From positions 32,899 through 96,898 of the forward strand of contig JBFWYG010000008.1 of NCBI GenBank assembly GCA_050186725.1: DNA of 64,000 nucleotides. Direction: 5' to 3'. The stretch comes from Gammaproteobacteria bacterium. Its GTDB lineage: Bacteria > Pseudomonadota > Gammaproteobacteria > Ga0077536. The notes under the pieces were generated by a model, which saw nothing but the letters and a program-made list of their open reading frames with translations, did no database searches and was not told the DNA's origin. Below, piece after piece: positions 4,313 to 54,345 of the stretch. The position numbers and the translations under genes are program-made. Every line of letters begins with the position of its first letter. Position 1 is the first letter of the stretch.

Positions 4313-5775
4313 ACGTGCCCTTCGCCTTTGCCCGCCGCCACGGCGTGTTCGTGCGCGCGGCGGAGCACGGCGAGACCCTGGTGTGCCGTCCCGGCGCGTC
4401 GCTCGCCGCGTTGGCGGAGGCGCAGCGCGTGGCGGGTGGCCTGCTGCCGCTCGCGCCCTTGAGCGACGACCAGTTCGAGACCGAACTGCAGCGCGCCTAC
4501 GAAGGCGCCGCGCAGGGCAATGGCCAGAGCATGGCGGAGTTCGGCGGCGAGTTCGACCTGGCGGATCTCGCCGAGGAACTGCGCGAGCCGACCGATCTGC
4601 TGGAGAGCGCGGACGACGCGCCGATCATCAGGCTGATCAACGCGGTGATCAGCGAGGCGATCCGCGAGAACGCCTCGGACATCCACGTCGAACCGTTCGA
4701 ATCGCGTCTCTCGATCCGCCTGCGCGTGGACGGCGTGCTGCGCCAGGTGATGGAGCCGCCGGCCGCCATCGGCCCGCTGCTGGTGTCGCGCATCAAGATC
4801 ATGGCCAAGCTCGACATCGCCGAGAAGCGCGTGCCGCAGGACGGGCGCATCTCGCTTCGCATCGCCAACCGCCCGGTGGACGTGCGCGTCTCGACCATCC
4901 CGTCCGGCAGCGGCGAGCGCGTGGTGCTGCGTCTGCTGGACAAGCAGGCCGGCCGCCTGCAGCTGGAACAGATCGGCATGGACGACGAGACCACCGCCGG
5001 CATCGACCAGATCATCCACCTGCCCCACGGCATCTTTCTCGTCACCGGCCCCACCGGCTCGGGCAAGACCACCACGCTGTACGCGGCGCTGGCGCGCATC
5101 AACGATCGCAGCCGCAACATCATGACGGTCGAGGATCCGATCGAGTACTACATCGACGGCATCGCCCAGACCCAGGTCAATACCAAGGTCGACATGACCT
5201 TCGCGCGCGGCCTGCGCGCCATCCTGCGCCAGGATCCGGACGTGGTGATGGTCGGCGAGATTCGCGACATCGAGACCGCGCAGATCGCCATCCAGGCGAG
5301 TCTCACCGGCCATCTCGTGCTCTCGACGCTGCACACCAATTCCGCGGTCGGCGCGCTGACCCGCCTGGCCGACATGGGCACCGAGCCCTTCCTGCTGGCC
5401 TCGAGCCTGGTCGGCGTGCTGGCGCAGCGCCTGGTACGGCGCCTGTGCCCCCACTGCCGCCAACCGGTCGCGCCGGACGCGGCGCTCGCCGCGCGCCTCG
5501 CGCTGCCGCTGGCCGAGCTCGAGCGGCACACGGTGTTCGAGGCCACCGGCTGCGCGCGCTGCATGCAGATCGGTTTTCGTGGTCGCACGGCCATCTACGA
5601 GTTCGTGTCCATCGACAAGGAAGTGCGTCGCCTCATCCACGACAACGCCGGCGAGCCGGTGATCGAGGAATACGTGCGTCGCCATTCCCCCAGCCTGTTC
5701 GCCAACGGCCGCGCCAAGGTGCTGGCCGGCGAGACCACCGCCGAGGAACTCATCCGCGTCACCACCGCGAGCTGA
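4309..5775 (+). CDS. gspE: Type II secretion ATPase GspE
   Basis: 488 aa; Walker A VTGPTGSGKTTTLYAAL, tetracysteine motif CPHC...CARC, and EIRD box typical of GspE/PilB-family ATPases. Confidence 0.9.
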   Translation: MNVPFAFARRHGVFVRAAEHGETLVCRPGASLAALAEAQRVAGGLLPLAPLSDDQFETELQRAYEGAAQGNGQSMAEFGGEFDLADLAEELREPTDLLESADDAPIIRLINAVISEAIRENASDIHVEPFESRLSIRLRVDGVLRQVMEPPAAIGPLLVSRIKIMAKLDIAEKRVPQDGRISLRIANRPVDVRVSTIPSGSGERVVLRLLDKQAGRLQLEQIGMDDETTAGIDQIIHLPHGIFLVTGPTGSGKTTTLYAALARINDRSRNIMTVEDPIEYYIDGIAQTQVNTKVDMTFARGLRAILRQDPDVVMVGEIRDIETAQIAIQASLTGHLVLSTLHTNSAVGALTRLADMGTEPFLLASSLVGVLAQRLVRRLCPHCRQPVAPDAALAARLALPLAELERHTVFEATGCARCMQIGFRGRTAIYEFVSIDKEVRRLIHDNAGEPVIEEYVRRHSPSLFANGRAKVLAGETTAEELIRVTTAS

Positions 5776-5786
5776 GCGCGCCCGGC

Positions 5787-7004
5787 ATGCCCGCCTACGA
5801 CTACCTGGCCTTGACCGCGAGCGGCGCGCGCCAGCGCGGCGTCACCGAGGCCGACACCGAACAGCAGGCGCGCCAGCGTCTGCGTGACCAGGGACTCGTG
5901 CCGCTCAGCGTCGAAGCCAGCCGGCGCGGCAGCGGCGTCGCCAACCGGCGTCGCGCCTTCGGCCGCGGCGCGCGGCTGTCCGGCGACCAGGTGGTGCTGT
6001 TCACGCGCCTGCTCGCCACGCTGCTGAATTCCGGCCTGCCGCTCGACGACGCGCTGACCGCGCTCTCCAAGCAGTCGGAGAGCGCGGACTTCAAGCGCGT
6101 CGCGCTCGACGTGCGCGCGCGCGTGCTGGAAGGCCATGGCCTGGCCGCGGGCCTCGACCAGTTCCCGCGCATCTTTCCGCCGGTGTACCGCGCGACCGTC
6201 GCGGCCGGCGCGCAGACCCGGCATCTGCCGACGGTGCTGGCGCGGCTCGCGGAGTTTCTCGAAGAACGCCAGAAGATTGCCTCGCGGCTCAAGGTCGCGA
6301 TGATCTACCCGGCCGTGTTGTCGGTGGTCGCCGCGGCGGTGGTCACCGGCCTGCTCGGCTACGTGGTGCCCGAGGTGGTGAAGGTCTTCACCGAGATGCA
6401 CCGCGAACTGCCGGCGCTGACCCGCGGGCTGATCGCCACCAGCGATTTCGTACGCGCCTGGGGGTGGGCGGTGGCATTGGTATTGGCGGCGCTCACCTGG
6501 CTGCTGCGCGCGGTGTTCGCGCGGCCCGCGCCGCGTCTCGCGCGCGACGGGTTCGCGCTGCGCGTGCCGCTGGTCGGCACCCTGATCCGCGAGGCCGATG
6601 CCGGACGCTTCGCGCGCACGCTGGCCATCCTGCTCGGCAGTGGTCTCTCCATGCTCGAAGCGCTGCACATCGCCGGCAAGGCGGTCGCGAACCGCGCCAC
6701 CGCGCTCGAGCTGGACGCCGCCATCGAACGCGTGCGCGAAGGCGCGGCGCTGTCGCAGGCCTTGAGCCGTGTACGAGGCTTTCCGCCGCTCCTCGCCCAC
6801 CTGGTCGCGAACGGCGAGAACTCGGGCGAACTGCCGCGCATGCTGGACTCCGCGGCGGATGCCCACGAACGCAGCATGCAGGTCAAGATAGCCGTGCTGA
6901 TGGGCCTCGCCGAGCCTCTGCTGATCCTGCTGATGGGCGCGATCGTGCTGGTGATCGTGCTCGCCATCCTGCTGCCGATCTTCGACATGAACCGGCTGGT
7001 GTAA
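5787..7004 (+). CDS. gspF: Type II secretion inner-membrane platform protein GspF
   Basis: 405 aa starting MPAYDYLALTASG, with two GspF/PilC-type repeats (LLNSGLPLDDAL... and LLGSGLSMLEAL...). Start derived by counting from the stop at 7004 inside the artefactual 873-aa track ORF. Confidence 0.85.
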   Translation: MPAYDYLALTASGARQRGVTEADTEQQARQRLRDQGLVPLSVEASRRGSGVANRRRAFGRGARLSGDQVVLFTRLLATLLNSGLPLDDALTALSKQSESADFKRVALDVRARVLEGHGLAAGLDQFPRIFPPVYRATVAAGAQTRHLPTVLARLAEFLEERQKIASRLKVAMIYPAVLSVVAAAVVTGLLGYVVPEVVKVFTEMHRELPALTRGLIATSDFVRAWGWAVALVLAALTWLLRAVFARPAPRLARDGFALRVPLVGTLIREADAGRFARTLAILLGSGLSMLEALHIAGKAVANRATALELDAAIERVREGAALSQALSRVRGFPPLLAHLVANGENSGELPRMLDSAADAHERSMQVKIAVLMGLAEPLLILLMGAIVLVIVLAILLPIFDMNRLV

Positions 7005-7048
7005 TCAGATCGATACGGGGACACATGGGGAGAGACCCCGTATCTGCA

Positions 7049-7125
7049 CGGCCGATTGAAATCGGCCCTACATCGGAGCCTGCTGTAGGGCGGGTTTCAA
7101 CCCGCCATTCGGTTCCAGAGCGCAC
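7049..7125. repeat. REP-like double-hairpin intergenic element (GGCCGATTGAAATCGGCC + GTAGGGCGGGTTTCAACCCGCC + ATTCGGTTCCAGAGC linker)
   Basis: The same composite element recurs at 23117-23348, 28629-28725, 43987-44165 and 45207-45297. Confidence 0.7.
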
Positions 7126-7144
7126 CATGGAGTGTCGGGTGCGA

Positions 7145-7193
7145 ATTCGGGGACAGACCACGGTTTCTGCGAAACCGTGGTCTGTCCCCGAAT
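7145..7193. repeat. Perfect 23-bp-stem/3-nt-loop palindrome (ATTCGGGGACAGACCACGGTTTC tgc GAAACCGTGGTCTGTCCCCGAAT) at the convergence point of gspF and gspM
   Basis: Reverse complement verified by hand. No flanking T-tract, so not a canonical intrinsic terminator. Unique in this window. Confidence 0.8.
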
Positions 7194-7210
7194 ATGCCTG
7201 CGACCCGCGC

Positions 7211-7693
7211 TCACCGCCCCTTCAACGTCAGATCCGCCCGCACCACCCCTGGCGCCTGCGCCTCGATGTTCGCCCGCTCCAGTTCCACGCCGGCCTCCTG
7301 GTCCAGGCTCACCAGCCAGGCCGCGAGCTTGGCGTAGGGAATGTCTTCCAGGTAGAGCGACAGCGCGCGCGCGCCGACCGGGGCCATCTTGCGCGCGTGG
7401 GGCTGGACGTCGGCGGCCTTGGCGCTGCTGGTGACGACCGCTAGCAGCGAGGCGTTCGGCGCGAGGCGCGCGCGCGCCGGCGCCTGGGCGCCGAGGGCCT
7501 GCGCTTCGGCGGCCACCTCGGTGAGATGGGCGCCGAGATCCCGCGCCGCGGCGAGCCGCGTGGCGAGACGCGCGTTGGCCTCGCTCATCGGATCGAGCAC
7601 CAGCAGGAAGTACAGCGCGGCGGCGACCGTCAGCGCGCCGACGGTCAGAAGCACTTTCTCCGAGTCGCTGCGCGCGGCGAACCAGGCGTTCAT
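7211..7693 (-). CDS. gspM: Type II secretion system protein GspM
   Basis: 160 aa; short cytoplasmic N-terminus, single TM (LLTVGALTVAAALYFLLVL), periplasmic domain. Position downstream of gspL. Confidence 0.6.
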   Translation of the reverse strand: MNAWFAARSDSEKVLLTVGALTVAAALYFLLVLDPMSEANARLATRLAAARDLGAHLTEVAAEAQALGAQAPARARLAPNASLLAVVTSSAKAADVQPHARKMAPVGARALSLYLEDIPYAKLAAWLVSLDQEAGVELERANIEAQAPGVVRADLTLKGR

Positions 7694-8883
7694 CAGGAAC
7701 CCACCTGCACGCGCAGTCGGGCCACGACCTTGCCGTCCGCGGCCTCGGCGCTGACCGTCTCAGCGCCGAGCCCGGCGCCAAGCAGTGCGCCACGCAGGGC
7801 CTCGACGGCGTCCATGCCCGCCACTTCCACGCCGAGTTCCAGCAGGCCGCCGGCGAAGCTCGCCAGCGTCACGCGGGTGTCTTTCGGAAACTCGTTCTGG
7901 CGCACCTGTTCGATGCGCGCTAGCAGATCGAGCAGGCGCGGGGTGGCGGTGCTGCCGCCGCGCAGCGCGGCCAGCGCCTGGTCGGCTTGCACGCGCGGAT
8001 TGACCAGGCGCGTGACCTCGGGAAAGGTCGCGCGGAACAACGCTTCGTTGGCCGCGTTCTGGGCGCTCGCCTCCCGTTCCAGGACGCTGTGCTGCCAGGC
8101 GAGCAAGGCCGGCCAGGCCAGCACCGTCAACGCCGCGACCGCCGCCGCCGCGCGCCACAGCCGACCCGCCCGCGCGCGCTGCGCGCTCATGCTGGCGGTC
8201 TCGAACAGGCGCAGGTCCGCCTCGTCCGCGAGCGTCGCGAGTTGCTCGCCGGGCGTGAGCGGCGCGCGCCACACCACCTCCAGCCCTTGCAGGGCGGCGC
8301 GCGGCCAGGCCTCGGGTTCAGCGTTCGCCAGCACCACCACGCGCGCGGTGTCCGGCAGCTGCTGGCGCAGCAGGGGCAGCAGCCCGGCGAGGCCCGCGAG
8401 GTCGGTCTTGAACGCTTCGCCCGCGGCGGTGCGCAGCAGCGCCGAGTCGCCGTCCAGGGCGATGGTCCAGCCGTCCTGCGTGCGCGGCAGACCGCAGGCC
8501 TCGGGCAGCACCAGGCGCGGCTCGAGGCCGGCGTTGCGCAGCGCCTCGCCGAGCGCCTCGCGCCACGCGCGTTCGATAGCCGCCAGCGCGTAGCGGCCAT
8601 CACCGCGCGCGGCCAGCGCGAAATGGAGTTCGTCCAGCGGCTGCGCGAGGCGCTCCTCGGCGGCAAAAGGCGCGGCCTGGCGCGCGGTGCGCAGGTCGGC
8701 GACCGGCAGTTCCAGTATCAGCAGCGTGACCCGCGCGGCGTCCACCAGCAGCACGCACTCGCGTCCCGCGAGCGCGGTGGCGAAGACCGGCAGTCCGTCG
8801 CTGCGCGCGCGACCGTCGTCGTCTCGCCAGTGCAGGCGCATGCAGTCCTGCGGGTCGACTCGCGCGATCAGCGTGTCATTCAT
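7693..8883 (-). CDS. gspL: Type II secretion system protein GspL
   Basis: 396 aa; size and position between gspK and gspM; N-terminal cytoplasmic domain, central TM, periplasmic C-terminus. 1-nt ATGA-type overlap with gspM. Confidence 0.55.
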   Translation of the reverse strand: MNDTLIARVDPQDCMRLHWRDDDGRARSDGLPVFATALAGRECVLLVDAARVTLLILELPVADLRTARQAAPFAAEERLAQPLDELHFALAARGDGRYALAAIERAWREALGEALRNAGLEPRLVLPEACGLPRTQDGWTIALDGDSALLRTAAGEAFKTDLAGLAGLLPLLRQQLPDTARVVVLANAEPEAWPRAALQGLEVVWRAPLTPGEQLATLADEADLRLFETASMSAQRARAGRLWRAAAAVAALTVLAWPALLAWQHSVLEREASAQNAANEALFRATFPEVTRLVNPRVQADQALAALRGGSTATPRLLDLLARIEQVRQNEFPKDTRVTLASFAGGLLELGVEVAGMDAVEALRGALLGAGLGAETVSAEAADGKVVARLRVQVGS

Positions 8884-10075
8884 CGAACCAGCCCTTGTCG
8901 CGGGACAGCACGGTCACGGCGTCACCGCCGGGTCGCGCGAGCAGCGCGCGGGCGGTGAACTGCGAATCGCCGCTGCGCACCTGCATGCGCAGGCTGAAGT
9001 ACTGCGAGTTCACCGCGAGTCCCTCGCTCACCACCGGCCGGCCGGCGACCATCGGCAAGGCCAGCAACTCGGCGACGCTGCGCAGCGGCCGCACGCGGCG
9101 GGTGTGTTCGATCATCTCCGCGGTGGAACGATCGAAGGCCGGGCTCAGGCTCATCAGCACTTCGAGCGGCGCGGTATTCAGGTTGATGGGCGTAGTCATG
9201 GGTAGCACGGTGACGAATCTTCGCAGCTTCTCATAGGTCTTGGCATCGATGCCTCGCACCAGGCGCAATTCGCTCACGTCGGCGAAGGCGCGGTTCGCCG
9301 CGCGATAGGGCGGCGACTGGCGCATGTAATAGTCGTCCTCGGCGCCGTTCGGAAAGCGCGTGTCGCTGTCCGCGTCCAGCCAGTCGAGGATCGCCGGCAA
9401 CACCGCGTCGTCGATTTCGAGCGTACGCAGCAAGAGCGCGAGGCGCGCCACCGCGACCTGCTGCTCGCTCAAGGTGAGGCCCTGGCCCGCGGCGCCCGCG
9501 CTGGTCGGCATGCCGGCCCCGACCACGCCCGGCAGGGTCGCGAGCGCCATCATCGCCAGGCTGTCGCCGCCGGGCGCCTCGTCGCGCGGGTTCGCGTCCC
9601 GCGGGCGCCCGGACAGACCACTGCCCGCGCCGCCACCCGACGCAACGTCCTGGTCCGCCGCCGCGGCGTCCCTCGCCGGCGGCGGGGCCGACGTTTCCTC
9701 CGCCTCCCGACGCGCGTCGCCGCCCGCTGCGAGCACGTCTGGCGCGAACGCGATGTCGCGCAGGTTGAACAGCGCCTGCGCGTCCTGCAGCGTGGCGTTG
9801 CCGCGGCCCTCGGCGCGATCGACCAGCAGGGGAACCTGCGCCCACAGGTCGTCCTCGGCGTCGAAGGCCTCGCCGCGCGCGTCCCGCGCCAGCGCGCGCC
9901 GCGCCTCGTCCTCCAGCGCCTCGAACAGCGGTGTCGCGGCGCGCGCCTCGAAACCGCGCGCGGTGGCGGCGATGCCGTGCGCGCTGCGCAGCCCGATGGT
10001 GGCCGCGAGCGCCACCACCAGCACGACTATCACCAGCGCGCCGAGCAGCGCCATGCCGTGTTGCCTGGCGCGCAT
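8876..10075 (-). CDS. gspK: Type II secretion minor pseudopilin GspK (with ~90-aa Ala/Gly/Pro/Asp-rich low-complexity insertion)
   Basis: N-terminal hydrophobic pseudopilin-like segment MALLGALVIVVLVVALAATIGL; NLNTAPLEVLMSL matches the conserved GspK motif; position after gspJ. Confidence 0.65.
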   Translation of the reverse strand: MRARQHGMALLGALVIVVLVVALAATIGLRSAHGIAATARGFEARAATPLFEALEDEARRALARDARGEAFDAEDDLWAQVPLLVDRAEGRGNATLQDAQALFNLRDIAFAPDVLAAGGDARREAEETSAPPPARDAAAADQDVASGGGAGSGLSGRPRDANPRDEAPGGDSLAMMALATLPGVVGAGMPTSAGAAGQGLTLSEQQVAVARLALLLRTLEIDDAVLPAILDWLDADSDTRFPNGAEDDYYMRQSPPYRAANRAFADVSELRLVRGIDAKTYEKLRRFVTVLPMTTPINLNTAPLEVLMSLSPAFDRSTAEMIEHTRRVRPLRSVAELLALPMVAGRPVVSEGLAVNSQYFSLRMQVRSGDSQFTARALLARPGGDAVTVLSRDKGWFDE

Positions 10076-15674: not shown

Positions 15675-17482
15675 TGGCCGAGTTCCACTTCCTGAGACCG
15701 GCCTGGTTCCTGGCCCTGCTGCCGCTGGCCGGCCTGTTGTGGTGGGCGCTGCGCGGACGCGGGCGCGGCGGCGCCTGGACGCGGGTCTGCGATCCGGGCC
15801 TGCTGCCGTTCGTGATGGAACATGGTGAGGGCGCTCACCAGGGACGCGCGGGCGGCCTGCTGGCGCTGGCCGCGGCGCTGGCCGTGACCGCGGCGGCCGG
15901 CCCCACCTGGGAACGGCTGCCGGTGCCGGTGTTTCGTGGGGAGTCGGCGCTGGTCGTGGCGCTCGACCTGTCCGCGTCGATGGACGCCGAGGACATCAAG
16001 CCCTCCAGGCTGGCGCGCGCGCGTTTCAAGGTGGCGGATCTGCTGGCGCTCCGCCGCACCGGCCAGACCGCGCTCCTGGTGTTCGCCGGCCAGGCCTTCG
16101 TGGTGACACCGCTGACCAGCGACACCGCGACCATCGCTTCGCAGCTGCAGGCGCTCGAGACCGCCATCATGCCGGTACAGGGCAGCAACCCCGCGGCGGC
16201 GCTGGAGCTGGCCGGCAAGCTGCTCACCCAGGCCGGCATGCCGCGCGGCCACGTGCTGCTGGTGACCGACGGCGGCGACGCCGATGCGCTGGCTCGGGCC
16301 CGCGAGGTGGCCGCGGGCGCGGACTACAGCGTGAGCGTGCTGGGCGTCGGCAGCGCCGACGGCGCACCGATTCCGGACAGCAACGGCGGCTTCGTCAAGG
16401 ATTCGGGCGGCGGCGTCGCGCTCGCGCGGCTGGACGGTGGTGCGCTCGCCGCCCTGGCCAGCGCCGGCGGTGGCGACTACGTGCAGGCGCGGGTCGACGA
16501 CGGTGACGTCGAAGCACTCGCCCACAGCTTCGACGAGGACCGCGCGGCCAAGGTGCGCGAACTGGACCAGCTCGCCGCGAGCCAATGGCACGAGGTCGGT
16601 CCCTGGCTGTTGCTGCCGCTGCTGCCGCTCGCCGCGCTCGGTTTTCGGCGCGGTGTGCTGGCGGTGGCCGTGGCTGTCGGCCTCGCGCTCGGCGGTCCCA
16701 CGCCGGCGCGCGCCGACTGGTGGCGCACACCAGACCAGGCCGGCCAGGCGGCCTTCGAGGCGCGCGACTACGCCGACGCGGCGCAACGCTTCGAGGATCC
16801 GGCCTGGCGCGCCGCGGCGCGCTACCGCGCGGGCGATTACGCCGCCGCCGCCAAGGGTCTCGAAGGCCGGGACGGCGCCGACGACTTCTACAACCGCGGC
16901 AACGCGCTGGCCCGCGAAGGCCAGCTCAAGGAAGCCCTGGCCGCCTACGACGAGGCCCTGAAGCGCGCCCCCGCCGACGCCGACGCGCGGCACAATCGCG
17001 AGCAGGTGCTGAAGCTGCTCGAGCAGCGCGAGCAGGACGGCAAGGACAGCGGCAAGCAGCAGCCGGGCAAGCAGGACCCGCGGCGCAAGCCGTCGCAGAG
17101 CGAGCGCGGCGATCAGCAGTTCGGCGGCGACAAGGGCGGACAGTCCGACCAGGACACCAGCGGCGCGACCAACGCCGGCGGCGGCGCCGAGTCGCGCGAG
17201 CGGCAGCACGACGAAGACCAGTCGAGCGACAGCGGGCGCGGCAAGGGCAAGGCACGCGAACGCGTGGGCAAGCCCCAGGGCGGTGACCAGGCGGAAGGCG
17301 ACGAGCAGCAGCAGGCGGCGGCCGAGGAACGCAGCGACGAGTCCGCCGCCGAACGCGCCCAGGCCACCGAGCAGTGGCTGCAGCAGATCCCCGACGACCC
17401 GTCCGGCCTGCTGCGCCGCAAGTTCGAATACCAGTACAAGCAGATGTACGGCGACGCGCCGCGCGGAGAGACCCCATGGTGA
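15671..17482 (+). CDS. batB: BatB-like vWA + TPR protein with ~130-aa charged low-complexity tail
   Basis: vWA MIDAS (ALVVALDLSASM, LLVTDGGD), TPR repeats (YNRGNALAREGQLKEALAAYDEALKRAP), then a DE/KR/Q/G-rich disordered region. Confidence 0.7.
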   Translation: MMAEFHFLRPAWFLALLPLAGLLWWALRGRGRGGAWTRVCDPGLLPFVMEHGEGAHQGRAGGLLALAAALAVTAAAGPTWERLPVPVFRGESALVVALDLSASMDAEDIKPSRLARARFKVADLLALRRTGQTALLVFAGQAFVVTPLTSDTATIASQLQALETAIMPVQGSNPAAALELAGKLLTQAGMPRGHVLLVTDGGDADALARAREVAAGADYSVSVLGVGSADGAPIPDSNGGFVKDSGGGVALARLDGGALAALASAGGGDYVQARVDDGDVEALAHSFDEDRAAKVRELDQLAASQWHEVGPWLLLPLLPLAALGFRRGVLAVAVAVGLALGGPTPARADWWRTPDQAGQAAFEARDYADAAQRFEDPAWRAAARYRAGDYAAAAKGLEGRDGADDFYNRGNALAREGQLKEALAAYDEALKRAPADADARHNREQVLKLLEQREQDGKDSGKQQPGKQDPRRKPSQSERGDQQFGGDKGGQSDQDTSGATNAGGGAESRERQHDEDQSSDSGRGKGKARERVGKPQGGDQAEGDEQQQAAAEERSDESAAERAQATEQWLQQIPDDPSGLLRRKFEYQYKQMYGDAPRGETPW

Positions 17483-19212
17483 ACTGGCTCACGCGGGTGG
17501 ACTGGCTGACGCGACTGCTGACCCTGTTCCTGGCCTGCGGCTGCCTCGCGGCGCGCGCCCAGGTGGAGCTCGAGGTGCGCCCCGATCCGGCGGTGCTGAA
17601 CCAGTCCATCGAACTGCGCTTCCGGGTGCCGGCCGTGGTCGAGGAAGCGCCGGACTTCAGTCCGCTGGCGGCGCTGTTCGACATCGTCAAGACCAGCAGC
17701 CAGTCGAGCCAGTTCGCGCTGAACGGCCGGGTCGAGCGGTCCACCACCTACGTGCTGGAAGTGATGCCCAAGCGCAGCGGCAAGGTGGTCATTCCCGCGC
17801 TGTCCTTCGGCGGCGCGCGCAGCCCGGCGCGACAGCTCGAGATTCGCGAGGAGCCGCTCGCCGGCGACGCCGGCGGCGCGCCGGACTTCATCGTCGAGGC
17901 GCTGGTATCGACCGCCACGCCCTACGTGCAGCAACAGGTGATCTACACCGTGCGGGCGCTGTTCGCGGTGCAGGTCAGCAGCCCGCGCCTGACGCCGGTC
18001 AGCGCGAGCGGCGACGCGGTCGTGAAACAGCTGGGCGACGGTCGCCAGGTCAGCGAGACCCGCGACGGCCGCAGCTACGAAGGCTTCGAGATGAAGTACG
18101 CAGTGTTCCCGCAGGCGAGCGGCACGCTGCGCCTGGCGCCGGCGGTGGTCACGGCCGAGGTGGTGGTCGGCGGACGGCGCTCGGTGTTCGATCCCTTCGC
18201 GCAGTCCTTGAGCACCCGGCGCATCGAATCCAAGCCGGTGGAACTCGAGGTGCGGCCGGTGCCCGCCGCCTTTCCCGCCGGCGCCACCTGGCTGCCGGCG
18301 CGGCGCCTGCGCCTGCACGAGGAATGGGAGCCGGACCAGAGCAGCGCCGAGGTCGGCGCACCCATCACGCGCACGGTGTTCCTGTGGGTCGACGGCCTCC
18401 TGTCCGGCCAGCTGCCGAAGCTCGCGCTGCGCGCGCCGGCGGACGTCAAGCTCTATCCGGACCAGGCTCAGACCAGCGATCAGGACACCGCCACCGGCTA
18501 TACCGCGGTGCTGCAGCAGAAGTTCGCGGTGATCGCCGCGCAGCCCGGCAAGCCGCGCTTCGATACCCTGGAAGTGCCGTGGTGGAACACCGAGACCGAC
18601 GCGCTCGAAGTCGCGCGGCTGCCGGCGCGTGAACTCGAGGTCATCGCGGCGCCGGGCGCCGCACCGTCGGCGTCACCCCCCCCCATCCCCGCGCCGGCCG
18701 AGCGCGCCGCGACCGACATCCCGGACCGCGCGCCTGCGGCGCCCGCGTCGGCGGCCGCCGCAGACTCCCCGTGGCGCGCCGTGGCCGCGGTGCTGGCGCT
18801 GGTGTGGCTGGCGACCCTGGTGCTGTGGTGGCGCAGCCGCGGCGCGCCGACCACCGTCTCGAGCGCGCGGTCCGGTGACGCCGTGCTCACACCCGCGCCA
18901 CGCGGGTCCGAGGACCTGGCCGGCGCCTGTCGCGCCAACGATGCCCGCGCGGCCTACGCCGCCTTGCTGCGCCTCGCACGCGCGCGCGGCCTCGGCACGG
19001 CGCCGCGCGCGCTGGCCGCGGGCCCTGACACGCCACTCGCGCTCGCCATCGCCGAACTCGAGCGCCAGCGCTACGGCGCCGATCCCGCGCGCTGGTCCGG
19101 CGCGCCGCTGCTCGCCGCCTGGCAGGCCGAAGGCGAGCGCAGCATGCCGCGTGGCCAGGCCGGCGCGCGCGCGGAAGCGCTGCCGCCGCTGCATCGCCTG
19201 GGCGCGGGTTGA
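17476..19212 (+). CDS. batD: BatD-like protein
   Basis: Start MVNWLTRVDWLTRLL overlaps the batB end (ATGGTGA). Signal/TM at the N-terminus and TM near the C-terminus (WRAVAAVLALVWLATLVLWW); position after batB. Confidence 0.55.
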   Translation: MVNWLTRVDWLTRLLTLFLACGCLAARAQVELEVRPDPAVLNQSIELRFRVPAVVEEAPDFSPLAALFDIVKTSSQSSQFALNGRVERSTTYVLEVMPKRSGKVVIPALSFGGARSPARQLEIREEPLAGDAGGAPDFIVEALVSTATPYVQQQVIYTVRALFAVQVSSPRLTPVSASGDAVVKQLGDGRQVSETRDGRSYEGFEMKYAVFPQASGTLRLAPAVVTAEVVVGGRRSVFDPFAQSLSTRRIESKPVELEVRPVPAAFPAGATWLPARRLRLHEEWEPDQSSAEVGAPITRTVFLWVDGLLSGQLPKLALRAPADVKLYPDQAQTSDQDTATGYTAVLQQKFAVIAAQPGKPRFDTLEVPWWNTETDALEVARLPARELEVIAAPGAAPSASPPPIPAPAERAATDIPDRAPAAPASAAAADSPWRAVAAVLALVWLATLVLWWRSRGAPTTVSSARSGDAVLTPAPRGSEDLAGACRANDARAAYAALLRLARARGLGTAPRALAAGPDTPLALAIAELERQRYGADPARWSGAPLLAAWQAEGERSMPRGQAGARAEALPPLHRLGAG

Positions 19213-27383: not shown

Positions 27384-28616
27384 GTGAGCGGAGATCAGGT
27401 TCTCGAATTCCTGCAGTTCGTCGAAGGCCAGAAGAACCAGTCCGCCAGCCAACTGCTCGACCGCATACTGCAGAAGAGCCGGCTTCTGACTGGCGCCGAG
27501 GCCGGCACCATCTTCATCGCCCGCGCCAAGGGGCGCGAGCGCTGGCTCGAGCCGGCGAGCATCCAGAACGACGCCGTCAAGGTCAAACGCGCCGACTTCA
27601 TCGTACCCATCGGGCCTGGCAGCATCGCCGGCTACGTGGCGCACAAGGGGCGCACGGTGCGCATCGACGACGTCTACGACATCCCCGCGCGCAGCCCCTA
27701 CAAGTTCGACGCGCGCTTCGAGCGGCGCAACTACAAGACCCACTCCATGCTGTGCTTTCCGCTGCGCAACCTGCAGAGCGACGTGATCGGCGTGGTGCAG
27801 CTGATCAACCGCCGCGGCGGCAAGAGTCGCAAGCTGCTGCCCTTCACCCGGGACGCCGAGCAGCTCATCGCGCCCATCGCGCGGGTCGTCGGCCACTCCA
27901 TCGAGCGCGCGGAGATGCTCGACCAGATCCGCGCCAAGAACAAGACGCTCAGCACCCGCAACCGCCAGCTCGCCGAGCAGCGCTCGCGCATCGCGGCCCT
28001 GCAGGAGGAGACCGAGGCGGCCTTCAAGGTGTCGGTCACCCTGCTCGCCCGCGCCGCCGAGATCCACGACGAGGAGACCGGCAACCACATCATCCGCGTC
28101 AACGAATACAGCTACGCCATCGCCAAGCGCTTGGGCATGCCCGACAGCTGGTGCGATGACATCCGCTACAGCGCCCAGCTGCACGACGTCGGCAAGATGA
28201 GCGTGGACTCCGCGGTGCTGAAGAAGAAGGGCCCGCTGACCCCTGACGAACGCCAGGAGATGAACCGCCACACGGAGTACGGCTTCCAGATCCTGTCGGC
28301 CTCGCCGCGCCTGTCACTCGGCGCCGAGATCGCGCTCTACCACCACGAGAAGTGGGACGGCACGGGCTATCCCCAGGGCGTCCAGGGCGAAGCCATCCCG
28401 CTCTCGGCGCGCATCGTGCAGCTCGCCGACATCTACGACGCGCTGCGCTCCGAGCGGCCCTACAAGAAGGGCTTTCCCCATGAACAGGCGGTGCAGATCC
28501 TCACCATCGGCGACGAGCGCATCGACCCGCGCGGGCATTTCGATCCGAAGCTCATCGAGCTGTTCGCCACCCATCACCTGGAATTCGATCGGATCTGGAC
28601 GTCGTTGCAGGATTGA
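27384..28616 (+). CDS. GAF-HD-GYP c-di-GMP phosphodiesterase
   Basis: N-terminal GAF-like domain; C-terminal HD-GYP with HDVGK and HHEKWDGTGYP. Probable GTG start at 27384, 4 nt after GGAGG. The upstream part of the track ORF is not conserved-looking. Confidence 0.8.
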   Translation: MSGDQVLEFLQFVEGQKNQSASQLLDRILQKSRLLTGAEAGTIFIARAKGRERWLEPASIQNDAVKVKRADFIVPIGPGSIAGYVAHKGRTVRIDDVYDIPARSPYKFDARFERRNYKTHSMLCFPLRNLQSDVIGVVQLINRRGGKSRKLLPFTRDAEQLIAPIARVVGHSIERAEMLDQIRAKNKTLSTRNRQLAEQRSRIAALQEETEAAFKVSVTLLARAAEIHDEETGNHIIRVNEYSYAIAKRLGMPDSWCDDIRYSAQLHDVGKMSVDSAVLKKKGPLTPDERQEMNRHTEYGFQILSASPRLSLGAEIALYHHEKWDGTGYPQGVQGEAIPLSARIVQLADIYDALRSERPYKKGFPHEQAVQILTIGDERIDPRGHFDPKLIELFATHHLEFDRIWTSLQD

Positions 28617-28628
28617 GGCGCGGAGCGC

Positions 28629-28725
28629 TCTGGCACGAATGGCGGGTTGAAACCCGCCCTACATGGGATGGCGCGTTGAAACCCGTCGTCCGGGGAGTGG
28701 AGGCATCCTTGTAGGGCCGATTTCA
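28629..28725. repeat. REP-like element copy
   Basis: GGCGGGTTGAAACCCGCCCTACA ... TGTAGGGCCGATTTCAATCGGCC. Confidence 0.75.
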
Positions 28726-28748
28726 ATCGGCCATGCAAGGCGCCCGAC

Positions 28749-29204
28749 CTACCCCGCCTCCACCATCGCCTGCACCGCGTGCTGGCGGATCTGCTGGACC
28801 ATGGCGTGCAGGCCGTTGCTGCGGGTCGGCGAGAGGTGCTCGGCGAGCTCGATGTCCTTCAGGAAGTCCGGCGGCGTGGCGAGAATGTCGGCCGGGCGCC
28901 GGTCCGAGTAGACCGACAGCAGCAGCTGGATCAGGCCCGCGACGATGGCGGAATCGCTGGTCGCCTCGTAGTGCAGCAGGTCGCCGCGCTTCTCGGTCAC
29001 GATCCACACCTGGGACTGGCAGCCGTGCAGCTTGTACTTGTCGGTCTTCCACTCCTCGGGAAACGGCGGCGCCTGGCGACCGAGGTCGATGATGTACTGG
29101 TAGCGCTCGGTCCAGTCGCCGAACAACTGGAAGGTCTCGACGATGTCGCGCTGCGTGGCGAGGATGTCCTCCGCCGGCTCGAGCTTGCCCGGTGCGTCAC
29201 TCAT
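28749..29204 (-). CDS. SufE-family sulfur-acceptor protein
   Basis: 151 aa; conserved SufE core ([12 protein letters not shown] with the active Cys). ATG 29204..29202 overlaps the cysS stop 29203..29201 (ATGA). Confidence 0.75.
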
Positions 29205-30583
29205 ATCCGTCGCCACTCCGTGCCGCCCGCGCCATCCTTGATGGCGATGCCGCGCGCGGCGAGTTCATCGCGCAGTTCGTCGGCGCGCTTCCAATCCTTC
29301 GCCGCGCGCGCGGCGCTGCGCGCCGCGACCAGCGCGTCGATCTCGGCGTCATCGTCCTCGGCGCCGACCGCGCCGGCCTTGGCCCAGGCCACCGGGTCCT
29401 GCTGCAGGATGCCGAGTTCGCGACCGCCGGCCAGGAGCCATGCCTTGCAGCGCCGCCGCTCGGCGGCGTCCTGCGAGCGGTTGGCGAGCGTCACCGCTTC
29501 CATCAGCACGGCGATGGCCTTGGGCGTGTTGAGGTCGTCGTCCATCGCCGCGGTGAAGGCCTTCGACGGCACGACTTCGTCCGCCGCGAGTTCGACGTCG
29601 GCAAGTCGTTCCAACGTTCCGTACATGCGGTCGAGCTGGGCCTTGGCCTGTTCCACCAGCTCGTCGGTCCAGTTCAGCGGCTCGCGGTACTTGCCGCGAA
29701 TGAGCGCCATGCGCAGCGCCTCGCCCGGGTGCTTCTTCAACAGTTCGCGCACCAGGAGCACGTTGCCGATCGATTTCGACATCTTGGTCGCGTCTATTTC
29801 GACGAAGCCATTGTGCACCCAGTAGCGCGCCAGCGGCGCGCCCTGGTGCGCGCAGCGGCTCTGCGCGATCTCGTTCTCGTGGTGCGGGAACTTGAGGTCG
29901 TTGCCGCCCCCGTGGATGTCGATGCTGCGCCCCAGGTGGTGCTCGATCATCGCCGAGCACTCCATGTGCCAACCGGGCCGGCCGCGGCCCCAGGGACTGT
30001 CCCAGCCGGGCAGATCCGGCGAGGACGGCTTCCACAGCACGAAGTCCGCGGGGTCGCGCTTGAAGGGCGCGACCTCGACCCGCGCGCCGGCGATCATCTC
30101 GTCGCGGTTGCGCCCGGAGAGCTGGCCGTACTCGGCGAAGCTCGGCACGTTGAACAGCACGTGACCCTCAACCTCGTAGGCGTGTCCGCGCTCGATGAGC
30201 GCGCCGATCATGGCGATGATGTCGCCGATATGGGCGGTCGCGCGCGGCTCTATCGGCGGCGGCAGCACGCCGAGCGCGGCGACGTCGGCGTGGTAGACCG
30301 CGGTGTAGCGCTCGGTCACCACCGAGATGGGCACGCCTTCGCTGGCCGCGGCGGCGTTGATCTTGTCGTCGACGTCGGTGATGTTGCGCGCGTACACCAC
30401 GTTCGCGTAGTGACGCTTCAGCACGCGGTACAAGAGGTCATAGACCACCGCCGCGCGGGCATTGCCGATGTGCGGCGGGTTGTAGACCGTCGGTCCACAG
30501 GCATACATCGTGACCCGCGCGGGGTCGGCCGGCGTGAAGACTTCCTTGCGGCGGGTGAGCGAGTTGTAGAGTTCGAGTGCCAT
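29201..30583 (-). CDS. cysS: Cysteinyl-tRNA synthetase
   Basis: 460 aa from [10 protein letters not shown]; HIGH ([11 protein letters not shown]), KMSKS (KMSKSIGN), Zn-binding Cys motifs. Confidence 0.9.
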
Positions 30584-30656
30584 GTGGGCGAGCCCCAGCG
30601 CCGGCGGGCGAGAAAGCGGCGCAGTATACCCAAGGCGCCGCGCCGCGCCCATCGGC

Positions 30657-31199
30657 TCAGCGCCAGAGCATGCGAGCCAGGGTGCCGTCGCGGTCGAGGA
30701 ACTGGTGCTTGCACGCCGCGGCCGCGTGCAGCGCCACCAGCACCGCCGTGCCATAGCCGCAGAAGTAGTGCACGTCGATGGCGAGATCGCGCAGACGCTC
30801 CGGGATCACCACCAGCGCCGGCACCTCGAACCACTCGAAGAAGGACACGCCGTGCCCCTCCGAGGTCGAGACCAGGAAGCCGGTGACCGGGATCAGGAAC
30901 ACCAGCAGGAAGAGCGTGTGGTGCATGGCGGTCGCGGCGACCCGCTCCCAGCGCTTCAGGCCCGCGTGGCCGGGCGAAGGCGACACACGGCGCCACAGGA
31001 GCGTCGCCACGCCGAGCACGAAGACCAGCATGCCGAGCGCCTTATGGCTCTCCAGGGCCTTGTGATACCAGCGGTCGTAGTAGCTGAGACCGACCATGTA
31101 CCAGCCGAGCACGACCAGCCCGACGATCAGGAGCGCGGTCGCCCAGTGCAGCAGCTTGGTGACGAGGCCGTAGTGCTCGGCCGTGTTCAGGATCCGCAT
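30657..31199 (-). CDS. Cytochrome b561 family protein
   Basis: 180 aa from [26 protein letters not shown]; four TM helices with conserved His residues. Confidence 0.7.
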
Positions 31200-31263
31200 C
31201 GGTGGAGGACCTCGCGGCGTGGTGAGGGTCGGCGCCGGGTTCACACCCGGCGCCGACAGCGGC

Positions 31264-32718
<1,455 letters not shown>

Positions 32719-32777
32719 GCAAATACCTCAATGAAAAATCAGGTGGCTTGTCTACGTCGTGTGGCGCGGGCCGGATC

Positions 32778-33968
32778 TCAGGCCAGCGCGCTCTTCAGCT
32801 TGTCGACCAGGTCGGTCTTCTCCCACGAGAAGCCGCCGTCGGCCTCGGGCTGGCGGCCGAAGTGGCCGTAGGCCGCAGTGCGCTCGTAGATCGGGCGGTT
32901 CAACTGCAGGTGCTGACGAATGCCGCGCGGCGTGAGGTTCATGACCTCGGCCAGCGCGCGCTCGAGCTTCGCCTCGTCGACCTGGCCGGTGCCATGCAGG
33001 TCGACGTACAGCGACAGCGGCTTGGCCACGCCGATGGCGTAGGCCAGCTGAATGGTGCAGCGATCGGCGAAGCCGGCCGCGACCACGTTCTTGGCCAGGT
33101 AGCGCGCCGCGTAGGCGGCGGAGCGATCGACCTTGCTCGGGTCCTTGCCGGAGAACGCGCCGCCGCCGTGGGGCGCCGCGCCGCCGTAGGTGTCGACGAT
33201 GATCTTGCGGCCGGTGAGGCCGGAGTCACCGTCGGGCCCGCCGATCACGAAGCGACCGGTGGGATTGACGTAGAACTCGCTCTCCGGGCACATCCAGCCC
33301 TCGGGCAGCACCGCGAGCACGTAGGGGCGCACGATCTCGCGCACGTCGGCCTGGGACAGGTTCTCGGTGTGCTGGGTGGAGACCACGACCGAGGTCGCGC
33401 GCACCGGCTTGCCGTTCTCGTACTGCAGGGTCACCTGGCTCTTGGCGTCGGGCAGCAGGCCCTTCTCCTTGCCGCTGTGACGGGCCGCGGCCATGTCCTG
33501 CAGGATGCGATGGGAGTAGTACAGCGGCGCCGGCATCAGCACGTCGGTCTCGCGGCAGGCGTAACCGAACATGATGCCCTGGTCGCCCGCGCCCTCGTCC
33601 TTGTCCGCGCCGCTGTCCACGCCCTGGGCGATGTCGGAGGACTGCGAGTGCACGTAGCAGGAGACGTCGGCGGTCTTCCAGTGAAAGCCTTCCTGCTCGT
33701 AGCCGATGGCCTTGACCGCGTTGCGCGCCAGGGTCTCGATGGTCTCCGAGGTGATGGAGGCCGGACCACGCACTTCGCCGGCGATCACGATGCGGTTGGT
33801 GGTGCAGAGCGTCTCGACCGCGACGCGGGCCTGGGGCTCGGCGGCGAGGTAGGCGTCCACCACGGCGTCGGAAATGCGATCGCAGACCTTGTCGGGATGG
33901 CCTTCGGACACGGATTCACTGGTAAAGAGGTAGCTCGACCGCACGCACTGTCTCCTTGCGTTCAGCAT
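32778..33968 (-). CDS. metK: S-adenosylmethionine synthetase
   Basis: 396 aa from MLNARRQ...[18 protein letters not shown]; [27 protein letters not shown] before ATG 33968. Confidence 0.9.
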
Positions 33969-51285: not shown

Positions 51286-54200
51286 ATGGCAACGCGGCGC
51301 GGAACGGCAACCAACGACCTCCTGAGTGGCACCGCCGGCAACGATGTGCTGCTCGGCCTCGCCGGCAACGACCAGTTGCGCGGTCGCGGCGGCAAGGATC
51401 GCCTGGACGGCGGTCGCGGCAATGACCGACTGTTCGGCGGCGCCGGCAACGACACGCTGATCGGCGGCGCGGGGCGTGACCTGCTGCGCGGCGAGGCTGG
51501 CAACGACACCTACTTCATCGACCGCGCCACCGAGATCGACAAGCGCGTGACCGACGCCGGCATCGACACCGTGGTGTCGAGCGTGAGCTACGTGCTCGGC
51601 ACGCGCCAGGAGAACCTGCGCCTGACCGGCAAGGCCGCGCTGTTCGGCACCGGCAACAGCGGCGCCAACCAACTGACCGGCAACGACGGCGCCAACCGCC
51701 TGAGCGGTGGTGGCGGCAACGACGTGCTGAACGGCGGGCGCGGCGTGGACAGCCTGCGCGGGGACGGCGGCAACGACACCTACCTCATCGACAACGCGCT
51801 CGAGATCGACAAATCCCGCGTCGATGCCGGCATCGATAGCGTGCGCTCCACGGTGACCTACACCCTCGGCGCATTCCAGGAACGCCTGGCGCTCATCGGC
51901 ACCGGCGCGATCGACGGCACCGGCAACGCCGGCGCCAATACACTGCTCGGCAACGCCGCCGCCAATCGCCTGGACGGCGCGGGCGGCGCCGACAGCGTCA
52001 ACGGCGCGGGCGGCAACGACACGCTGGTGTTCGACCTGCAGGATGCGCTGCTGGATGGCGGCGCGGACAGTGACACGCTGCTGGTCGAGGGCGCGGGGCG
52101 CAACCTCGGCAGCGCCGCGCTGAACGCGGTGCGAAACGTCGAGGTGCTGGACGTACGCGGCAGCGGCGGCAATGAACTGATTCTGGGCATAGACGACGTG
52201 CTGGCGCTGGCCGGGGCCGGGAAGGCGCTGCGCGTGCGCGCCGACGCCAACGAACGCGTGACGCTGCACGGTGGTTGGACCGCCGCGACCGACGTTGAAC
52301 TGGATGGCGTGGTGTACCGCCACTTCACCGCCGCCAATGGCGCGGATCTGCTCATTGAGCAGGGCGCGGCGCTGACCCTGAACGGCATCATTCCACTCGG
52401 CGCGCTGGACGGTGGCGACGGCTTCGCGCTGCGCGGCGTCTTGTCGGGCGAGGGCCTCGGCGACTCGCTGGCCGCGGCCGGCGACCTCGATGGCGACGGC
52501 TTCGCCGACTTCGTCGTCGGCCATCCCTTCAGCAGCCTGCCCGATCTGCGCGGCGGCGCCTACGTGGTCTATGGCGGCCCCGAGGCCTTCGCCGCGAGCG
52601 CCGACGCCACCACGGTCGCGGCCGCGCGCGGCTTCGAACTGGTCAGCGATGTGCAGTTCGGGCTGGCCGCCTACAGCCTGGCGAGCGCGGGTGACTTCAA
52701 TGGCGATGGACTCGCCGATCTGCTGGTCTCCTCCCCGACCCATCCTTCGCCGGTCGACGGTCCCGGCCGGGTCTACGTGGTGTTCGGCGACGCGACGCGG
52801 CCCACGGGCGTTCTGGCTCTCGACGGCCTGAACGGCAGCAACGGCTTCGCCATCGACGGCCTCACTGCTCAGGACTCCTTCGGCATCGGGCTGACCAGCG
52901 GCGACGTCAACGGTGACGGCTTCAGCGATCTGCTGCTGGGCGCGCCGCTAGGCGACGGCGGTGGCAACGCGAGCGGCGCCGCCTACGTGATCTACGGCAC
53001 GAGCGACGACATCACGACGCCGCTGGCGGTCGGCGCCCTGAACGGCGCCAACGGCTTCCGCATCGTCGGCAGCGCCGCGGGTGACAACCTCGGCTGGAGT
53101 CTCGCCAGCGGCGCGGACTTCAACGGCGACGGCCTGCACGACTTCGTGATCGGCGCCATCGGCGCGAACGACGAGCGCGGTAGTGGTTTCGTGGTGTTCG
53201 GTCGCAGCGACGGCTTCGGCGCGGAACTCGACCTCGACACGCTGGACGGCACCAACGGCTTTCGACTCGACGACAGCACCGCGCAGGCGGCAGCCGGCGC
53301 GAGCGTCTCCCTGCTCGGCGACTTGAACGGCGACGGCTTCGCCGACCTCTTGATCGGCGCGCCGTCGCGTACCAGCGACAACGGTCGCGCCTACGTGCTG
53401 CTCGGCCAGGCCGGCGGCTTCGCGGCGAACATCGACCTCGGCACGCTGAACGGCACCAACGGCTTCCGCCTCGATGGCGTGGCGTCGCTCGACCGCGCCG
53501 GCCAGTCGGTTGCGGGGGCCGGGGACGTGAACGGTGACGGCTTCGACGACCTCATCGTCGGCGCGCTGCGCGCCGACGCCAACGGCGTGGAGACCGGCGG
53601 CGCCTACTTGTTGTTCGGCAAGGCCGGCGGCTTCGCCGCGACCCTGTCCCTCGGCGCGCTCGACGGCAGCGACGGCCTGGTGGTGCAGGGTGTCGCCAAT
53701 GGCGACCGCACCGGCGCGCTGGTGGCCGGACTCGGCGACGTCGACGGCGATGGCTTCGCCGACGTGCTGCTCGGCGCCCCGCGCGCCGACGGCGCGCAGA
53801 CCGACAGCGGCGCGAGCTACGTGCTGCTCGGCCGCGACTTCACCGGCGACGTGCGCTTCGTCGGCGGCGACGGCGATGACCAGTTCCAAGGTGCGCAGGG
53901 CGATCGCGTCGTCGGCGGCCGCGGCGCCGACATCCTGAGCGGCGCCGGCGGCAACGTGCTGCTCGGCGGCGCCGGTGACGACGTCCTGGTGTGGAATGCG
54001 AGCCACCTGCGCCTGGACGGTGGCGGCGGCGACGACACCCTGCGCCTGGTGGGCCAGGGCGTGACGCTCGATCTGAGCCTGGTGCCGGACAGCCGCGTGA
54101 CCGGCATCGAGAACATCGACCTCACCGGCAGCGGCAACAACGCGCTCATCCTCGGGCTGACCGACGTGCTCGCGCTGGGCGATGGCACGCTGCGTGTGCT

Positions 54201-54345
54201 CGGCGACAGCGGCGATGCGGTGACCACGCTGCAGAACTGGACCGAGGGCACGGTGCAGACCATCGCAGGCCAGGACTACCGCAGTTTCACCCTGGGTGCG
54301 GCCACCCTGCTGGTCGACGACAGCATGAGCTTCGCGGTCATTTGA
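51286..54345 (+). CDS. Large (1019 aa) RTX-repeat + FG-GAP/integrin-alpha beta-propeller repeat protein, probable T1SS-type exoprotein/adhesin
   Basis: N-terminal and C-terminal GGxGxDxL nonapeptide (haemolysin-type Ca-binding) repeats; at least 7 repeats of GDxNGDGxxDLLVG (FG-GAP); no N-terminal signal peptide; Gly/Asp-rich throughout. Confidence 0.75.
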   Translation: MATRRGTATNDLLSGTAGNDVLLGLAGNDQLRGRGGKDRLDGGRGNDRLFGGAGNDTLIGGAGRDLLRGEAGNDTYFIDRATEIDKRVTDAGIDTVVSSVSYVLGTRQENLRLTGKAALFGTGNSGANQLTGNDGANRLSGGGGNDVLNGGRGVDSLRGDGGNDTYLIDNALEIDKSRVDAGIDSVRSTVTYTLGAFQERLALIGTGAIDGTGNAGANTLLGNAAANRLDGAGGADSVNGAGGNDTLVFDLQDALLDGGADSDTLLVEGAGRNLGSAALNAVRNVEVLDVRGSGGNELILGIDDVLALAGAGKALRVRADANERVTLHGGWTAATDVELDGVVYRHFTAANGADLLIEQGAALTLNGIIPLGALDGGDGFALRGVLSGEGLGDSLAAAGDLDGDGFADFVVGHPFSSLPDLRGGAYVVYGGPEAFAASADATTVAAARGFELVSDVQFGLAAYSLASAGDFNGDGLADLLVSSPTHPSPVDGPGRVYVVFGDATRPTGVLALDGLNGSNGFAIDGLTAQDSFGIGLTSGDVNGDGFSDLLLGAPLGDGGGNASGAAYVIYGTSDDITTPLAVGALNGANGFRIVGSAAGDNLGWSLASGADFNGDGLHDFVIGAIGANDERGSGFVVFGRSDGFGAELDLDTLDGTNGFRLDDSTAQAAAGASVSLLGDLNGDGFADLLIGAPSRTSDNGRAYVLLGQAGGFAANIDLGTLNGTNGFRLDGVASLDRAGQSVAGAGDVNGDGFDDLIVGALRADANGVETGGAYLLFGKAGGFAATLSLGALDGSDGLVVQGVANGDRTGALVAGLGDVDGDGFADVLLGAPRADGAQTDSGASYVLLGRDFTGDVRFVGGDGDDQFQGAQGDRVVGGRGADILSGAGGNVLLGGAGDDVLVWNASHLRLDGGGGDDTLRLVGQGVTLDLSLVPDSRVTGIENIDLTGSGNNALILGLTDVLALGDGTLRVLGDSGDAVTTLQNWTEGTVQTIAGQDYRSFTLGAATLLVDDSMSFAVI

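Follow-up and report, generated by a model that had tools for sequence, protein, structure and literature searches.

A gene for cysteinyl-tRNA synthetase (cysS) lies directly upstream of a gene for a SufE-family sulfur acceptor (sufE), on the same strand, in 136 of the 146 assessable loci (93%) of two scans that return the nearest relatives of their queries, a count that describes the clades around our window and around a second seed (P0346) and not all bacteria. The window is the whole stretch of gammaproteobacterial DNA analyzed here, 64,000 nucleotides long. The evidence as it stands favors an ordinary reading of this arrangement, in which the two genes probably form a bicistronic housekeeping operon for a standard cysteinyl-tRNA synthetase (CysRS) and a SufE of the SUF pathway, with the desulfurase SufS encoded elsewhere. 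Three groups of alternatives have to be weighed against this reading: that CysRS makes persulfide which SufE accepts, that the two proteins are functionally coupled in some other way, and that the gene order is simply inherited. We consider each of these where the evidence that bears on it is given.

The two genes and their products

The upstream gene, cysS (29201..30583, minus strand), encodes a 460-aa class I cysteinyl-tRNA synthetase that scores 493.5 bits against the NCBIfam equivalog profile TIGR00435, for which the cutoff is 340, and that carries the Pfam domains tRNA-synt_1e, DALR_2, and CysS_C. Its alignment with E. coli CysRS (1li5) is colinear over residues 3–459 (E = 6e-128), contains the HIGN and KMSKS motifs, and makes equivalents of the zinc-site residues C28, C209, H234, and E238 visible; no extra domain appears in this alignment or in the Pfam and NCBIfam profiles. 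By its score, motifs, and zinc residues the protein is a canonical CysRS.

The downstream gene, sufE (28749..29204, minus strand), encodes 151 aa, of which residues 22–141 correspond to positions 1–120 of the 121 positions of profile PF02657 (154.9 bits). Its active cysteine, Cys62 in the motif HGCQS, corresponds to C51 of E. coli SufE in the alignment with 1mzg (E = 1.2e-23). The first-pass annotation of this DNA, made from the letters and translations, had named both genes and had pointed to this cysteine as conserved; the profile scores bear out the two identities, and the cysteine holds its place under proper alignment. GCQS is present at all 80 loci of the genome scan, the cysteine column is invariant in a 16-sequence alignment of the SufE family, and the window protein matches every other column that is invariant in that alignment, including those around S83. 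No clade-specific domain or insertion was seen in CysS when compared with 1li5 or in SufE within the 16-sequence alignment. Exact matches to the 460-aa CysS and to the 151-aa SufE occur in GCA_050249175.1, a Gammaproteobacteria MAG, where the public gene call has the same boundaries. An alternative in-frame GTG start for sufE lies at 29216, and we prefer the ATG at 29204–29202 because the public 151-aa call matches it exactly and because close relatives align from residue 1 and keep the ATGA at this position.

E. coli SufE is encoded in the sufABCDSE operon, and its structure is available as PDB 1MZG. The window protein shares with it the PF02657 fold family, the loop cysteine, and the SDxAIV and HL(S/T)P(S/T)R motifs, but it has ∼15 extra residues at the N terminus and is encoded behind cysS rather than next to sufS or sufBCD. 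SufE of E. coli and of Salmonella are its nearest solved structures, ahead of CsdE. It also scores higher against the NCBIfam profile for SufE (NF006792, 108.5 bits) than against those for CsdE (TIGR03391, 83.9 bits; NF011594, 62.6 bits), with all three scores below the respective cutoffs of 160, 136.4, and 252, and NCBI names the protein only “SufE family protein.” On this evidence we place it in the SufE family, although its equivalog score does not establish it as a strict ortholog of E. coli SufE. E. coli CsdE (YgdK), the partner of CsdA and TcdA, belongs to the same family and has the same cysteine, and the window SufE matches PDB 4lw4 and 1ni7 with E values of ∼2e-16. The window protein is nevertheless more distant from CsdE than from SufE, and neither csdA nor tcdA is among the genes that were called or scanned in the window. 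Given the better SufE score and the absence of these two genes nearby, a CsdE-type role was rejected.

The junction between cysS and sufE

On the minus strand cysS ends in ...CGG ATA TGA, and its TGA (29203–29201) overlaps the ATG of sufE (29204–29202) in a shared ATGA (29204..29201). This overlap, noted in the first-pass annotation, can be read directly off the sequence, but the stoichiometric expression that had been proposed along with it is not implied by an ATGA, and most linked homologs have an intergenic gap instead. With junction classes resting on approximate start assignment, 138 linked loci divide into 23 with a 4-base overlap, 9 with another overlap, 96 with a gap of at most 100 nt, and 10 with a longer gap, so that the 4-base overlap is retained in about one-sixth of them. 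The ATGA is kept in close relatives of the window (L001–L007 and L009) and in Tahibacter, Luteibacter, and Lysobacteraceae loci, whereas elsewhere the junction is another overlap or a gap of ∼10–300 nt. The gene tables for this contig list at least four further same-strand 4-base overlaps (MFP/RND pump; XdhC/NTP_transf_3; T2SS J/I; an unnamed 159-aa protein and a helicase), and the overlap per se is not unusual. The conserved feature is the adjacency of the two genes and not their translational coupling.

Conservation of the gene pair

The genome scan drew on a single genome for each species and gave 80 loci with SufE proteins 52%–96% identical to that of the window. cysS stands directly upstream of sufE on the same strand in 75 of the 78 assessable loci; the three exceptions are genuinely unlinked, and two more loci are cut off where their contigs end. 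The metagenome scan, seeded with the 60%-identical SufE P0346, added 80 more loci, of which 61 are linked, 7 unlinked, and 12 unassessable (61/68 assessable loci linked). Further annotated contexts were taken by exact-protein look-up, and the linked pair was found across SufE identities down to ∼47%. The adjacency that had been noticed in this one stretch of DNA thus extends well beyond a single genome.

The genes around the pair vary far more than the pair itself. There are at least four different flanking contexts, and the genes on both sides have been exchanged at least three times. In the clade of the window, cytochrome b561 lies upstream and HD-GYP and ileS lie downstream. Among Xanthomonadales, where the pair occurs in Rhodanobacter, Dyella, Frateuria, Luteibacter, Tahibacter, Rudaea, and others, the upstream gene encodes a glycine-zipper lipoprotein and the downstream genes are dksA and folE2. 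Marine and sediment lineages have leuS, lptE, and hisI upstream and (merC, fur) trm112, holA, nadD, and rsfS downstream, and a fourth context (locus L090) has an unnamed gene upstream, with another unnamed gene and folE2 downstream. In a neighbor-joining tree the linked SufEs make up one large clade, with the unlinked ones outside it and a few nested within. Because the linked clade has unlinked outgroups, the tree suggests a single origin of the pair followed by long retention and occasional loss.

Such a tree is also what would be expected if the pair had formed once in an ancestor and had merely not yet been broken, with a short or overlapping junction helping to preserve it, and the occasional losses agree with this neutral account. 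We consider it quite improbable nonetheless, given that the pair was kept, at the frequency stated above and down to the lowest SufE identities, through at least three exchanges of the genes on both sides. Furthermore, most junctions are gaps of ∼10–300 nt, and the overlap therefore cannot be what holds the genes together. Two genes that stay together over long times and through rearrangements are a classic sign that their proteins are functionally coupled and often interact. Retention through several rearrangements exceeds what co-expression strictly requires, and to this extent it counts against the housekeeping reading.

A separate observation concerns the genes that recur at some distance: yidD together with hisI or folE2 is found a few kilobases from sufE in L084 and L086 (Oceanospirillum-like) and in L063 (Rhodanobacter). 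These genes are near sufE in lineages with and without the cysS linkage, which hints at an older shared sufE neighborhood (yidD, hisI/folE2) into which cysS was brought later.

Relatives without the linkage

Oceanospirillum beijerinckii and a related MAG carry SufE genes that are 56%–58% identical to that of the window, no more diverged than linked ones, and yet unlinked, between an M20 peptidase gene and miaE; a Balneolaceae copy of sufE stands alone. Frateuria sp. Soil773 (L012) has kept the downstream dksA and has pilus genes where cysS would be; there, as in L011/L028 and in several metagenome loci, the linkage has been lost without replacement. In one unlinked relative sufE overlaps a SufT-like PF01883 gene, and in several metagenome relatives without cysS linkage a NifU_N-like gene comes after sufE, with thrS next. 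These two contexts, PF01883 and NifU_N-like, tie the sufE subfamily to Fe-S assembly. The arrangement with thrS is seen in L165 (2989–6120), L168, and L170, and probably in L153; the NifU_N-like gene in it is small and its Pfam match weak (31 bits), and it may form a SufE/IscU-like pair with sufE.

The same comparisons bear on whether the two proteins are coupled in function, or even physically, in a way other than by sulfur made on CysRS itself. SufE, or SufS together with SufE, might be tuned to the occupancy of CysRS and so partition cysteine between translation and Fe-S, or might provide sulfur for tRNA thiolation. A two-gene unit that survived repeated rearrangement of both flanks fits a pattern often seen for interacting products, and other aminoacyl-tRNA synthetase genes recur in the vicinity, with thrS beside sufE in the relatives just described and ileS or leuS near the pair elsewhere. 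Such coupling appears unlikely, however, when set against the losses without replacement and against the make-up of the proteins, neither of which has a clade-specific domain or insertion. Nor have the two been joined: there is no CysS–SufE fusion among the best 150 of 4787 SufE representatives (96–317 aa), and no PF02657 domain in the best 120 CysS homologs (432–480 aa).

Surroundings of the pair within the window

The minus strand carries, in this order, metK, ahcY, cytochrome b561, cysS, and sufE, and 3′ of sufE lie a convergent GAF/HD-GYP gene and then ileS. With metK and ahcY (SAM cycle; 31264–33944, minus strand) just upstream of cytochrome b561–cysS–sufE, this makes a run of genes related to sulfur amino acids; the wider metK/ahcY/cytochrome b561–cysS–sufE arrangement is kept only in the close clade (L001, L006, L007, and L009).

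A spacer of 73 nt (30584..30656, minus strand), with TATACT at 30628–30623, separates the stop codon of cytochrome b561 from the start of cysS and is a possible promoter region. A consensus scan of the operon strand gave no sigma-70-like site, and an Rfam search of 28300–31500 at a permissive threshold gave no leader or family, only chance-level viral matches. At the other end, the 130-nt spacer between sufE and the convergent GAF/HD-GYP gene is filled by a cluster of REP-like palindromes (28625..28741) made up of three ∼29-nt units with four inverted-repeat pairs, the RNA of which folds into a long hairpin (−69.2 kcal/mol, z = −2.85). The 22-nt core of this element, GGCGGGTTGAAACCCGCCCTAC, occurs in 8 copies in the 64-kb window versus 0 expected; the element is also found at 7085, 23119, 23204, 23326, 44084, 45210, and 45272, in intergenic spacers, where two or three units often cluster. 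A terminator consensus scan called no T-tract terminator on the operon strand, and the REP-like cluster is probably the end of the operon.

We also looked for possible sulfur donors in the vicinity. The Pfam-annotated gene tables, which cover ∼9.4–51.6 kb of the window, contain no Aminotran_5/cysteine desulfurase, Suf, Isc, or rhodanese gene, and Pfam scans of the long high-GC3 open reading frames of both window ends, outside ∼1–2.3 kb and 5.8–7.7 kb and for end frames of at least ∼300 aa, likewise gave no desulfurase, Suf, Isc, or rhodanese. The earlier remark that no sufS or csdA lies nearby is therefore correct for the window genes called or scanned. The annotated flanks of four other loci (L063, L088, L090, and L091) contain no Aminotran_5 or Suf gene either.

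Some other genes of the window deserve mention. A 1019-aa protein (51286–54345, plus strand) has seven FG-GAP repeats and five stretches of RTX calcium-binding repeats and is probably a secreted adhesin-like protein. Type II secretion genes, reported as near this gene, lie elsewhere in the window at 2294–10075, and a BatD-like gene is found at 17476–19212.

The proposed persulfide relay from CysRS

The first-pass annotation had proposed that SufE is a dedicated acceptor for persulfide made by CysRS. According to this idea, CysRS would make cysteine persulfide by a PLP-dependent side activity and the co-expressed SufE would take it up, giving a sulfur relay independent of any desulfurase. Several observations are compatible with it, including the retention of the pair in 136/146 assessable loci and at least four genomic contexts, the invariance of the SufE cysteine throughout the locus set, and the lack of a desulfurase among the window genes called or scanned. 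There is also a precedent for a SufE-like protein that works with a sulfurtransferase other than a desulfurase (PMC12375888).

The residues of CysRS itself tell against the idea. In the study of persulfide synthesis by E. coli CysRS, PLP was mapped to 73-KIIK-76 and 266-KMSK-269, and each single Lys-to-Ala change, including K76A, markedly lowered persulfide synthesis while translation remained intact (Akaike et al. 2017, PMC5660078). The window CysRS is a close colinear homolog of this CPERS enzyme and keeps KMSKS, but at the position of KIIK it reads KINA and lacks the second lysine, one of the four (two in KIIK, two in KMSK) that were each reported as needed for cysteine persulfide synthase (CPERS) activity in E. 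coli CysRS. The second KIIK lysine is absent from 72 of 73 sufE-linked CysS copies, which read KINA, KINT, KINL, and similar. All of the best 120 CysS homologs (120/120) read K-I-N-x, and none (0/120) has a lysine at the fourth position; KMSKS is always present in the copies compared. As the comparison covers linked CysRS proteins and the 120 closest homologs, the missing lysine may be a trait of the clade and not something connected with SufE.

Other points lead in the same direction. The reported CPERS product is free Cys-SSH (PMC5660078), which needs no protein acceptor. No fusion was found among the best 150 SufE and best 120 CysS proteins, and neither protein has an extra domain. The SufE genes of Oceanospirillum-like genomes are unlinked at 56%–58% identity, other unlinked relatives adjoin Fe-S assembly genes, and only about 23/138 linked loci retain the overlap on which coupled translation would depend. 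We accordingly regard the relay as very unlikely. A dedicated SufE acceptor for persulfide made by CysRS finds no support beyond the conserved gene order, and nothing indicates that sulfur passes between CysS and SufE. The points listed argue against the relay as it was formulated, leaving room for other forms of coupling.

In Mycobacterium tuberculosis the SufE-like protein Rv3284 activates the rhodanese SseA (PMC12375888). Like the window sufE, Rv3284 is a stand-alone SufE-family gene whose neighbor is not a cysteine desulfurase; unlike it, Rv3284 adjoins a sulfurtransferase with persulfide chemistry of its own, whereas the neighbor in the window is an aminoacyl-tRNA synthetase. A rhodanese partner as in M. 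tuberculosis was rejected for the window SufE because the genes called or scanned in the window include no rhodanese. The M. tuberculosis case shows that SufE-family proteins can have partners other than desulfurases, which counts against the housekeeping reading. CysRS and SufE could be functional partners throughout a large radiation of Gammaproteobacteria that takes in Xanthomonadales and several uncultured lineages from sea and soil, connected by a sulfur or persulfide hand-off or by a regulatory complex that partitions cysteine between translation and Fe-S assembly; selection for this partnership would then have preserved the gene pair through the repeated rearrangements. We give this a low probability, which it keeps because Rv3284 and SseA show that SufE-like proteins do serve non-desulfurase partners.

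Probable function

The housekeeping operon remains the reading that we favor. It is in keeping with the full-length PF02657 match, with SufE scores above those for CsdE, and with the canonical CysS, as well as with the inheritance of the pair as a unit and the position of unlinked relatives next to Fe-S assembly genes. In such an operon the loop cysteine of SufE, Cys62, would accept persulfide from the type II cysteine desulfurase SufS, presumably encoded elsewhere in the genome; SufE would stimulate SufS and pass the sulfur on to the SufBCD Fe-S scaffold. Placed behind the essential and constitutively expressed cysS, sufE would be co-transcribed from the cysS promoter and so have steady housekeeping expression, and the linkage may also connect two genes whose products are large users of free cysteine. 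Steady expression of this kind would fit lineages with SUF as their only Fe-S assembly system. Xanthomonas campestris, which belongs to the order in which the cysS–sufE pair is most widespread, is reported to be such a case (PMC6599224), and in Xanthomonas expression of sufE accompanies that of sufC and sufD (PMC13488318).

Discussion

Each of the two proteins is a textbook enzyme about which the window tells us nothing new. In the open literature searched we found no description of a cysS–sufE operon and no study of sufE in Xanthomonadales, and none of the papers found there that name both cysS and sufE discusses an operon. The conserved gene order thus appears to be undescribed, and we regard it as a modest comparative-genomics observation and not as a new system. 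Its value is comparative, in that cysS and sufE stay together as a stable unit of two genes in many Gammaproteobacteria. Should there be more behind the linkage than shared housekeeping expression, aminoacyl-tRNA synthesis and sulfur trafficking would be connected through it, and the debated persulfide activity of CysRS would gain a genetically tractable test case.
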